In this document: one piece after another, positions 1 through 678 of the stretch | Layout of the letters: the number at the start of each line of letters is the position of its first letter | How positions within the stretch are numbered: the first letter of the stretch is position 1 | Source: Escherichia coli | GTDB taxonomy: Bacteria > Pseudomonadota > Gammaproteobacteria > Enterobacterales > Enterobacteriaceae | Assembly: GCF_003334335.1 (NCBI RefSeq) | Contig: NZ_QOWQ01000161.1 | DNA length: 678 nt | Reading direction: 5' to 3' (one strand) | The notes under the pieces: generated by a model | Databases searched by the model: none | What the model saw: only the letters and a program-made list of their open reading frames with translations | What the model was told of the DNA's origin: nothing | Made by a program: the position numbers and the translations under genes

Positions 1-125
1 TCCGGGATATAACGGCGGTTCTCCGGCAGGAAAAACTCCCTCGCCAGTATCACACTGTGTTCCTTCAGTAACGCCTGCAGACCATACTCCAGATAGCGAT
101 TCCTGGTAGCCAGAATCACCTTCAT
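1..125 (-). CDS. Hypothetical protein, N-terminal 41 codons only (gene continues beyond window start); possibly a receiver-like/LuxR-family-type regulator N-terminus (weak)
   Basis: ATG at 125..123 with a well-spaced SD. Manual translation gives MKVILATRNRYLEYGLQALLKEHSVILAREFFLPENRRYIP with no stop through position 3. It is absent from the supplied ORF track, presumably because the visible part is short. The pattern hydrophobic-L-x-T-[RK]-[ND]-x-[YF]-L-x-x-G-L-x-x-LL resembles the beta1-alpha1 start of atypical receiver-like domains (compare GadE MIFLMTKDSFLLQGFWQL, recalled from memory). The product call is speculative. Confidence 0.4.
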   Translation of the reverse strand, partial: MKVILATRNRYLEYGLQALLKEHSVILAREFFLPENRRYIP

Positions 126-132
126 CGCAGCA

Positions 133-139
133 CCTTCCT
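133..139 (-). promoter_or_regulatory. Shine-Dalgarno sequence (AGGAAGG) for the downstream minus-strand gene
   Basis: Minus-strand sequence reads ...CATAAAAAACAGGAAGGTGCTGCGATGAAGGTG...; the purine-rich AGGAAGG lies 7 nt upstream of the ATG at 125..123. Confidence 0.5.
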
Positions 140-153
140 GTTTTTTATGCCCC

Positions 154-189
154 ATGAAAAACGGCAGACCAGAGTCCTGCGCCTGCCGT
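154..189 (-). terminator. Putative Rho-independent terminator downstream of the adhesin gene
   Basis: Exact inverted repeat acggcag (161..167) / ctgccgt (183..189) gives a 7-bp GC-rich stem. On the minus-strand transcript it is followed immediately by UUUUU (plus-strand aaaaa at 156..160). The hairpin starts 24 nt after the TAA stop (216..214). The loop is long (15 nt) but can partly pair internally (gcagac / gtcctgc). Confidence 0.45.
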
Positions 190-213
190 CATACTTCATG
201 TCACCTTCAGCAA

Positions 214-678
214 TTAAAACTCGAAGTTCACACCAACGTTCCAGGAGGCATCGCCATCACTGAATGCCACGCCTGCTTTCGCTGCGGTCTGCTCGTTGAA
301 GCGGTAACCCACACCCACTGCCAGTGCCTGCTGGTCGCTGTAACCACCAACCGCTGCCGTGGCGTTGAATTTACCCACACTGTACGGCTGGAACAGACCT
401 GTCAGGGCCGCAGACTGTGCTGCTGCTCGTTTCATTTCCTTGTGGTTTTCATTAATCTGGCGCTGCTGGCTGTCCAGACGTGCTGAATGTTGCTGCAGCG
501 TACGGGTATTGGCTGCAATCGCCTTGCTGTTTTTCTCAATGGATTGCGTGTTACGGGTGACACGGCCATCAATGGCACCAACTGCTGCATCAATACGGTC
601 AGTACGACCAGACAGGGCCACCAGACCATCGTTAACAGAAATGGTGTTCTTTGCACCTTCTGCACGGGTCAGGGTGCC
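214..678 (-). CDS. Trimeric autotransporter adhesin (YadA/Eib-like), C-terminal part: coiled-coil stalk plus YadA-type beta-barrel membrane anchor. Partial: the 5' end of the gene lies beyond the window end; stop codon TAA at 216..214.
   Basis: Manual minus-strand translation in the frame of the 214..621 ORF is open through to position 678: [154 protein letters not shown]. The last ~70 aa align closely, from memory, with the Yersinia YadA membrane anchor (...[36 protein letters not shown]..AGVAY....NASFNIEW). Present are the conserved GG pair (343..348), alternating small/hydrophobic beta-strand residues, and a C-terminal aromatic residue (Phe) typical of outer-membrane beta-barrel insertion signals. 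Upstream of the anchor is a polar, Ala/Gln/Asn/Arg-rich segment typical of a trimeric autotransporter stalk. Confidence 0.85.

Follow-up and report, generated by a model that had tools for sequence, protein, structure and literature searches.

The window analysed here, a stretch of 678 nucleotides (nt) from Escherichia coli (contig NZ_QOWQ01000161.1), carries the 3' end of an Eib-type adhesin gene and the start of a second gene, orf-156. All of its features are on the minus strand. We propose to place its product, ORF-156, in the TosE family, as a small LuxR/GerE-class orphan regulator of transcription whose action is directed at host genes and coupled to the adhesin. The probability of this reading is roughly 0.72. 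The narrower identification, that ORF-156 is a LuxR-type regulator with a pseudo-receiver domain, is well supported. By sequence, the closest characterised relative of ORF-156 is TosE of uropathogenic E. coli.

Escherichia phage PhiR5_2 and a prophage of E. coli SW070917 both contain the window at 100% identity, and the prophage fragments P-EibA, P-EibC and P-EibD (the eibA, eibC and eibD loci) of strain ECOR-9 match it at ~96%. From the 100% identical records the full gene was recovered (L001:6554-7024). It extends ~346 nt past position 1 of the window and encodes 156 amino acids (aa). The first 41 are exactly the residues quoted in the original prediction, which was made from the letters of the window and proposed a regulator resembling GadE and RcsA next to an adhesin. 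The gene start that it described, with a Shine-Dalgarno sequence and an ATG 88 bp after the adhesin stop on the same strand, is also present (Table 1). The gene was annotated as "ORF-156" in the P-EibA/C/D/E records in 2000; elsewhere the product is a hypothetical protein.

A profile built from the family without TosE matches the 160-aa protein P0050 at E = 2e-33 over positions 1-152. The gene of P0050 is located 3' of a gene for a very large RTX-type repeat protein, and is followed by a gene for a 169-aa protein with a GerE domain. The locus in strain Nissle, which adjoins pic, is ordered as follows: PapB-family regulator, TolC-family protein, type I secretion ABC transporter, HlyD adaptor, repeat protein, 160-aa protein, and 169-aa protein. 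This is the gene order of tosRCBDAEF, and P0050 is therefore TosE. TosE and ORF-156 are 32% identical over 151 aa in BLASTP (E = 5e-31).

The two proteins are similar in size (160 and 156 aa) and share the same invariant T, G and D positions. Each gene comes immediately after an adhesin gene in the same orientation, a hairpin and a U run lying between them, and both are on horizontally acquired DNA. The upstream adhesins are different: TosA is an RTX protein secreted by a type I system, while the adhesin preceding ORF-156 is a trimeric autotransporter of type Vc. The tos locus is part of a chromosomal pathogenicity island and has its own PapB-type regulator, TosR, whereas ORF-156 is seen in the late or moron regions of prophages. 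Proteins of the TosE branch reach the Pfam models GerE or Sigma70_r4_2, and ORF-156 does not.

The C-terminal part of ORF-156, residues ~98-155, corresponds to a four-helix LuxR-type helix-turn-helix (HTH) domain (helices at residues 102-155 in the AlphaFold model). Two profiles were compared with the sequences in PDB: one of close relatives (A2) and the same profile with divergent members added (A3). A2 gives only weak matches, to VqmA, a LuxR-family protein, and to GerE, at residues 93-149. A3 matches GerE at E = 7e-4; next come VraR, VqmA and EvgA at the same positions, and all 15 of its matches up to E = 1, within residues 84-149, are LuxR-type HTH domains or sigma region 4. A search of PDB with the single sequence of ORF-156 by phmmer returned nothing significant. 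Two distant members of the family match Pfam GerE (PF00196) at E <= 1e-3 (best 2.3e-6), and clusters of the TosE branch have precomputed matches to PF00196 or PF08281 (Sigma70_r4_2). The C-terminal LuxR-type HTH that the original prediction led one to look for is thus detected by profile, with no direct match to PF00196. A protein-binding function of this domain, as a mimic of sigma-70 region 4 or as another module such as an anti-sigma or anti-activator decoy, in place of DNA binding, seems to us very unlikely.

The N-terminal part resembles a receiver domain. The AlphaFold model made from the family alignment (predicted local distance difference test, pLDDT, 80.3; predicted template-modelling score, pTM, 0.73) has the order beta-alpha-beta-alpha-beta-alpha-beta-alpha at residues 1-92 and then four helices. 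The first 39 entries of a Foldseek search against PDB are without exception full-length LuxR-HTH regulators whose N-terminal domain is of the receiver type, nearly all of them NarL/FixJ-type; the top 29 have probabilities of 0.9-1.0, and the others of 0.5-0.85. The top matches include StyR, RcsB, FixJ, EvgA, DesR, LiaR, VraR, DosR, VpsT and NarL. The comparison of A3 with an alignment of NarL, RcsB and EvgA by hhalign gives a probability of 80% (E = 1.4e-5) over 148 collinear columns. These matches agree with the receiver-like N-terminus that had been proposed from the first 41 residues.

Residues 1-95 form a shortened beta-alpha domain of this kind. T7-R8 replace the acidic pair that binds Mg2+ (they are aligned to D13-D14 of NarL), in keeping with the atypical character that had been predicted. 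D52, at the end of beta3, aligns with the phospho-acceptor D59 of NarL, and is also retained in TosE. T7, G15 and D52 do not vary among the 21 sequences of the family alignment, and the first two are the conserved Thr and Gly singled out from the window. With four clear beta-alpha units, neither the model nor the alignment contains an equivalent of helix alpha5 or of the conserved Lys after beta5. No histidine kinase gene was found in the flanks, which contain tail-fibre genes, ORF-60, a SPATE autotransporter gene, Lom and DinI. A kinase/regulator pair (His_kinase and LytTR Pfam domains) is seen near P0021, one of the homologues described below, beyond DinI; it is probably chromosomal sequence outside the prophage.

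Because the acidic pair, the Lys and alpha5 are lacking and no kinase gene is nearby, the domain is considered a pseudo-receiver, which would serve in dimerisation or in the binding of a partner, and ORF-156 most likely works without phosphorylation. The NarL/FixJ family (NarL, RcsB, EvgA, FixJ, StyR) has the same domain order, and the Asp is kept. Its receiver is ~125 aa long, against ~95 aa in ORF-156. With these losses and no cognate kinase gene, ORF-156 is not a bona fide phospho-dependent response regulator. Sensing of cyclic di-GMP as in VpsT was considered and rejected, the motif W[FLM][TS]R being absent from the ORF-156 sequence.

The likeness to GadE and RcsA stands in part. GadE, DctR (YhiF) and RcsA are small (175-207 aa), with a degenerate receiver-like N-terminal region and a LuxR HTH, and are orphans without a kinase, like ORF-156. 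The N-termini of GadE and DctR of K-12 have a hydrophobic strand, the motif T-[KR]-D-x-F-(L/F)-x-x-(G/A), and an Asp after beta3; the motif of the ORF-156 family, T-[KR]-[DN]-x-[YF]-L-x-x-G, is thus also visible in both. Kinship with these proteins is not demonstrable. The hhalign probabilities with A3 are 11% for GadE and DctR together (136 collinear columns), 6% for RcsA and 16% for MatA, the hidden Markov model scores against GadE, DctR and RcsA are 5-9 bits, and the nearest relative is TosE instead. The genes of GadE, DctR and RcsA are in the chromosomal core or an acid island, while that of ORF-156 is linked to adhesins and mobile. Nothing was found that links ORF-156 to acid resistance or capsule, so the acid-resistance targets suggested in the original prediction receive no support. 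A further lead, that the Psr regulators of O157:H7 prophages are GadE-like LuxR proteins, was dropped, as Psr are of the AraC/XylS type.

RcsA, GadE, BglJ, MatA and DctR act as partners of RcsB. ORF-156 could similarly be without autonomous DNA binding and form a heterodimer with RcsB through the pseudo-receiver and the HTH, redirecting RcsB, for example, onto flhDC. The build of ORF-156 is that of these small E. coli LuxR-type proteins, with a degenerate receiver and no kinase, and the N-terminal motif is common to GadE and DctR. RcsB chains are among the best Foldseek matches (best template-modelling score 0.51), TosE weakly matches the EcpR/MatA model (E = 0.005), and the recognition helix of ORF-156 is without the canonical basic residues. 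Against this, the hhalign probabilities for the known partners are the low values given above, and the likeness could reflect shared descent from NarL-type regulators. We regard an obligate partnership with RcsB as unlikely, and prefer a regulator that would bind DNA as a dimer.

The family itself is narrow. The homologue search gave 44 protein clusters; E. coli is the source of every one, and none is annotated. An exhaustive profile search of 1.84 billion representative proteins gave only 37 matches. AFDB50 holds members from UTI89, CFT073 and Salmonella, some of them automatically labelled "LuxR family". Judged from these sequences, the family is real but very narrow, and essentially confined to E. 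coli. The pairwise dN/dS across lineages is 0.09-0.34 with synonymous sites near saturation, which indicates that selection acts on the ORF-156 protein and that it is more than a chance open reading frame (ORF).

The location of orf-156 among tail-fibre genes, the annotation as a hypothetical protein and the frequency of pseudogenes and remnants might suggest a decaying or non-functional leftover of a prophage moron, or a structural or accessory phage gene unrelated to regulation. Such an origin is highly improbable, as it is already contradicted by the selection and by the confidently predicted fold matching regulators. Intact copies (>=80% coverage) are also present in 185 complete E. coli genomes. 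In PHROGs, ORF-156 falls into families of unknown function, with no match to structural proteins, and the sole match with a functional annotation, to a "transcriptional regulator" family, is very weak. The outcome that would have spoken for an unrelated protein was likewise not seen: both the HTH and the receiver-like domain are present, and no match to an unrelated family appeared. A role in anti-phage defence was rejected, since PADLOC gave no match for ORF-156 or ORF-60.

The gene upstream of ORF-156 is named eib in the GenBank records of the matching prophages, and encodes an immunoglobulin-binding trimeric autotransporter. The full adhesin, 419 aa long (locus L001) and ending in VGVNFEF, matches the YadA autotransporter model NF033478 of NCBIfam at E = 9e-19. 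Its last 165 residues are almost identical to those of EibA, while the head region differs, and the overall identity is 51%.

Between the two genes, a GC-rich hairpin, GACGGCAGGC...GUCUGCCG, is located at about 190-162 and is followed by five U (161-157). The original prediction had overlooked this element. The folding free energy of the spacer RNA is -32.5 kcal/mol (z = -3.6), and none of 200 shuffled sequences folds as well. A terminator scan also detects the hairpin, and it is carried as a stem_loop annotation in GenBank AF151091 and AF151676. A hairpin and U run ~25 nt past the adhesin stop are found in all eight adhesin-regulator junctions examined, with different hairpin sequences; these include the sequence-unrelated P0046 junction and tosA-tosE. 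Seven other lineages, again including tosA-tosE, have the same layout with spacers of 81-120 nt. The stretch from the hairpin to the ATG of orf-156 yielded no sigma-70-like promoter. The tos genes are reported as a single operon (PMC5956150). Taken together, the hairpin and U run at all eight junctions, the lack of a promoter there and the tos operon point to a leaky terminator or attenuator, which probably sets the ratio of adhesin to regulator. ORF-156 would then depend on transcripts that run through the adhesin terminator, and its level would be low and would follow adhesin transcription in proportion.

The association with adhesin genes is seen in several lineages, in which ORF-156-type genes sit 81-88 nt 3' of a gene with a YadA anchor and the homologues are 46-100% identical. 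A YadA-anchor gene is directly upstream in the four eib prophages of ECOR-9, in PhiR5_2 and SW070917, and in strain RM13752. It is also upstream in the abundant P0021 lineage (67% identical), which occupies prophage ends, and in the P0046 lineage (46% identical) on an island of strain 1105. On ~100 kb plasmids, the P0023 lineage (66% identical) follows a second, much larger trimeric autotransporter gene. In P-EibA, ORF-156 is followed by ORF-60 and then by the serine-protease autotransporter gene eaaA. Some match to orf-156 is present in 437 of the 5,426 complete E. coli genomes, including the 185 that hold most of the gene, so that roughly 3-8% of complete genomes carry it. An Eib-type anchor is directly adjacent in at least 71 complete genomes by blastn, a lower bound. 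The neighbourhood with trimeric autotransporter genes that the original prediction invited one to check is therefore frequent, but it is not obligatory. The surroundings of more distant members include an RTX-lipase-like gene on their 5' side, TonB-receptor genes on IncF plasmids, and fimbrial and pap genes.

This adjacency, together with the co-inheritance with YadA-type genes across several lineages, could also mean that ORF-156 chiefly regulates the adhesin next to it, activating or repressing eib in a local feedback and leaving host genes aside. A precedent is found in AutA and AutR, orphan LuxR/GerE-type proteins that bind the promoter of the neighbouring autotransporter gene upaB and act globally (PMC4844996). 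EibG responds to the environment, its expression being high in static culture and low when the culture is agitated, and a local regulator has not been named (PMC4352079). MatA/EcpR, whose gene opens the E. coli common pilus operon, and AutA/AutR are LuxR-type proteins encoded beside an adhesin locus, as ORF-156 is. They are analogues and not demonstrated homologues, compared by description in the case of AutA/AutR, and these regulators are encoded upstream of the adhesin or are separately transcribed.

Other facts are less compatible with local control. The known activators of eib genes, IbrA and IbrB, are encoded elsewhere in the genome (cited in PMC7649339). Intact homologues occur without an adjacent adhesin, in phage 2B8 and in an hpa-linked lineage, and the upstream regions of eib are poorly conserved between lineages except for a short promoter-proximal block. 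In the tos system, the adhesin is controlled by TosR, and TosE and TosF are linked to motility (PMC5956150). Control limited to eib is thus rather unlikely, and we favour action on host genes.

The predicted eib promoter (L001:5160-5188) has the -35 sequence TTGAAC and the -10 sequence GATAAT, and the spacer between them contains the 8-bp palindrome TGTATACA, which could be an operator site. The block TTTGTATACA(G/A)ATAA is conserved in the EibA, EibE, PhiR5_2 and P0021 lineages, and the remaining upstream region diverges. In the island of strain 1105, ibrA/ibrB-like genes (L022:5296-7157), encoding a PAPS-reductase-like protein and a protein with an IbrB-like domain, are located ~9 kb upstream of the YadA-like and TosE-like genes. 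An IbrA-like gene (PAPS_reduct and DUF3440) is also found near P0049, a distant member of the family (L004:9559-9678, L005:9548-9667).

If ORF-156 is a regulator of host genes, it would adjust them to a sessile, adhesin-expressing state. By analogy with TosE and TosF, the most likely target would be flagellar motility (fliC or flhDC), and it is the homology with TosE that makes motility the likeliest role. A second argument is that motility repressors are also encoded at other adhesin loci, namely MatA, PapX and MrpJ. TosE and TosF, LuxR-family members encoded by tosRCBDAEF, are associated with suppression of motility in PMC5956150 and PMC7545054, where the mechanism is given as unknown, and TosEF is listed among the regulators of fliC in PMC10392849. 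Eib expression is favoured by static culture and Eib drives chain formation (PMC4352079), which fits the picture of an adjustment of motility.

The recurrence of the arrangement permits a wider speculation. It is possible, and offered here tentatively, that an adhesin, a leaky terminator and a TosE-like regulator make up a general mobile cassette of E. coli, which would reprogram host regulons, most likely by shutting down motility and perhaps via RcsB. Horizontally acquired surface proteins with unrelated secretion types may each carry their own regulator in this way: TosA as an RTX adhesin, the trimeric autotransporters of prophages and plasmids, and perhaps also loci of the RTX-lipase-like and fimbrial kinds.

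Several points weigh against the proposed host-directed role of ORF-156. ORF-156 by itself has no match in Pfam even at E <= 10 and none in NCBIfam, and the HTH assignment therefore rests on profiles, transitivity and the predicted structure. In the hhalign alignment, N133, T134 and Y137 of ORF-156 are placed at K188, V189 and K192 of NarL, and the canonical basic residues are absent. We take these NarL residues to be those that contact DNA in the NarL-DNA structure, so sequence-specific DNA binding by ORF-156 is not assured. TosE is followed by TosF, a second LuxR-type protein; in the place of TosF, ORF-156 has ORF-60, a small membrane peptide with no GerE domain. The effect of TosE is reported jointly with that of TosF, and its mechanism is described as unknown (PMC5956150). 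The Eib literature that was searched makes no mention of the downstream gene or of a LuxR protein. The role of ORF-156 is drawn from sequence and prediction, as is the read-through part of the expression model.

The distribution of orf-156 also counts on that side. In phage 2B8 and related effector-carrying prophages, an intact gene stands directly after tail-fibre genes with no adhesin. In the hpa-linked lineage the gene is alone near hpaBC, again with no adhesin. Pseudogenes or remnants are present in E2348/69 (L009), in O111:H11 88.0502 (L012) and in Stx2 phages. The pseudogenes and adhesin-less copies indicate that orf-156 is dispensable and not strictly tied to an adhesin.

The remnants in Stx2a-type phages (~150 records of Stx-converting phages) and in many O157:H7 genomes lie between tail-fibre genes. 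The prophage backbone resembles that of PhiR5_2, and the eib gene is absent. In O157:H7 RIMD 0509939 (L010:6001-6106), the remnant is a 106-nt blastn match to the 3' part that encodes the HTH. By tblastn, the O157:H7 remnant covers residues 25-156 in two pieces, 58% of the protein.

Distant members that are 34-37% identical to ORF-156 were seen on the IncF plasmid p113Kb (L041:1-5570) and on related contigs (L004/L005:1252-3678). Preceding them is either a gene for a very large hypothetical protein or an RTX-lipase-like (PueAB-like) gene that is split. DUF4198 and TonB-dependent receptor genes are neighbours of these members, joined on the IncF plasmid by a gene for a PapB-like regulator. RefSeq annotates only an 86-aa C-terminal fragment on this plasmid, as "LuxR C-terminal-related", while tblastn aligns residues 1-153. 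In strain 1105 (L022:16346-31457), a tosCBD-like type I secretion system and an RTX repeat protein of 2,284 aa are present, with no annotated tosR or tosEF. The YadA-anchor gene and the TosE-like gene (P0046) are just upstream, and both adhesin types are thus found in one island.

Table 1. Positions of the features recognised in the 678-base window.
Feature	Position	Strand	Basis or remark
Eib-type trimeric autotransporter adhesin gene, 3' end (coiled-coil stalk and YadA-type membrane anchor)	214..678	-	translation; YadA model; EibA match
Adhesin stop codon TAA	216-214	-	read from sequence
88-nt spacer, adhesin stop to regulator start	126..213	-	read from sequence
Intrinsic-terminator-like element, hairpin and U run	157..190	-	RNA fold, terminator scan, GenBank stem_loop
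Shine-Dalgarno AGGAAGG, 7 nt before ATG	133..139	-	read from sequence
orf-156 start, first 41 codons and 2 nt	1..125	-	encodes beta1-alpha1-beta2 of the degenerate receiver-like domain
orf-156 start codon ATG	125-123	-	88 nt downstream of the adhesin stop

The start of ORF-60 overlaps the stop of orf-156 (TGATG). It is located at L001:7024-7206, and corresponding segments are at L011:6525-6647, L014:3056-3169 and L023:4529-4651. The C-terminal 42 residues consist of a basic N-terminal part and then one hydrophobic helix (MNKERCRTIGRKRYTTGAMCFMLFVWLGGVLALVATAAVVMQ). Several lineages have this conserved segment 3' of their orf-156 homologues, and it matches phrog_9340, whose function is unknown. 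After ORF-60, at ~L001:7206-7235, a hairpin is flanked by an A run and a T run, and the scan reads it as terminator-like on the opposite strand.

Residues 83-108 of ORF-156 weakly resemble beta3-beta4 of the B domain of Protein G, a streptococcal immunoglobulin-binding domain (GVWTY..A...T..EMV; E = 0.59, not significant). The likeness was judged to be due to chance, because at these residues the AlphaFold model shows a helix, then a loop and a short strand, and no beta-hairpin. On the plus strand of the window, ORFs such as a Cys/His-rich one of 110 aa at 154-486 are antisense to the eib coding sequence for the coiled-coil and anchor region, and are taken to be shadow ORFs of the adhesin gene. 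Rfam gave no structured-RNA match in the window at E <= 1.

Eib proteins enable commensal and Shiga-toxin-producing E. coli to bind immunoglobulin and to adhere in a chain-like pattern. Their expression varies with culture conditions, and no Eib regulator encoded at the locus has been described so far. The assignment of ORF-156 as TosE-like is useful for annotation, and would not surprise a specialist. It gives a "hypothetical protein" a testable role and connects the Eib prophage module with the tos system. If ORF-156 acts on host genes, it would be another prophage moron that rewires the behaviour of its host. If the cassette proposed above is real, the prophage would control host behaviour through Eib expression. 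This raises the question of whether prophage-borne adhesins bring with them their own switch between adhesion and motility.

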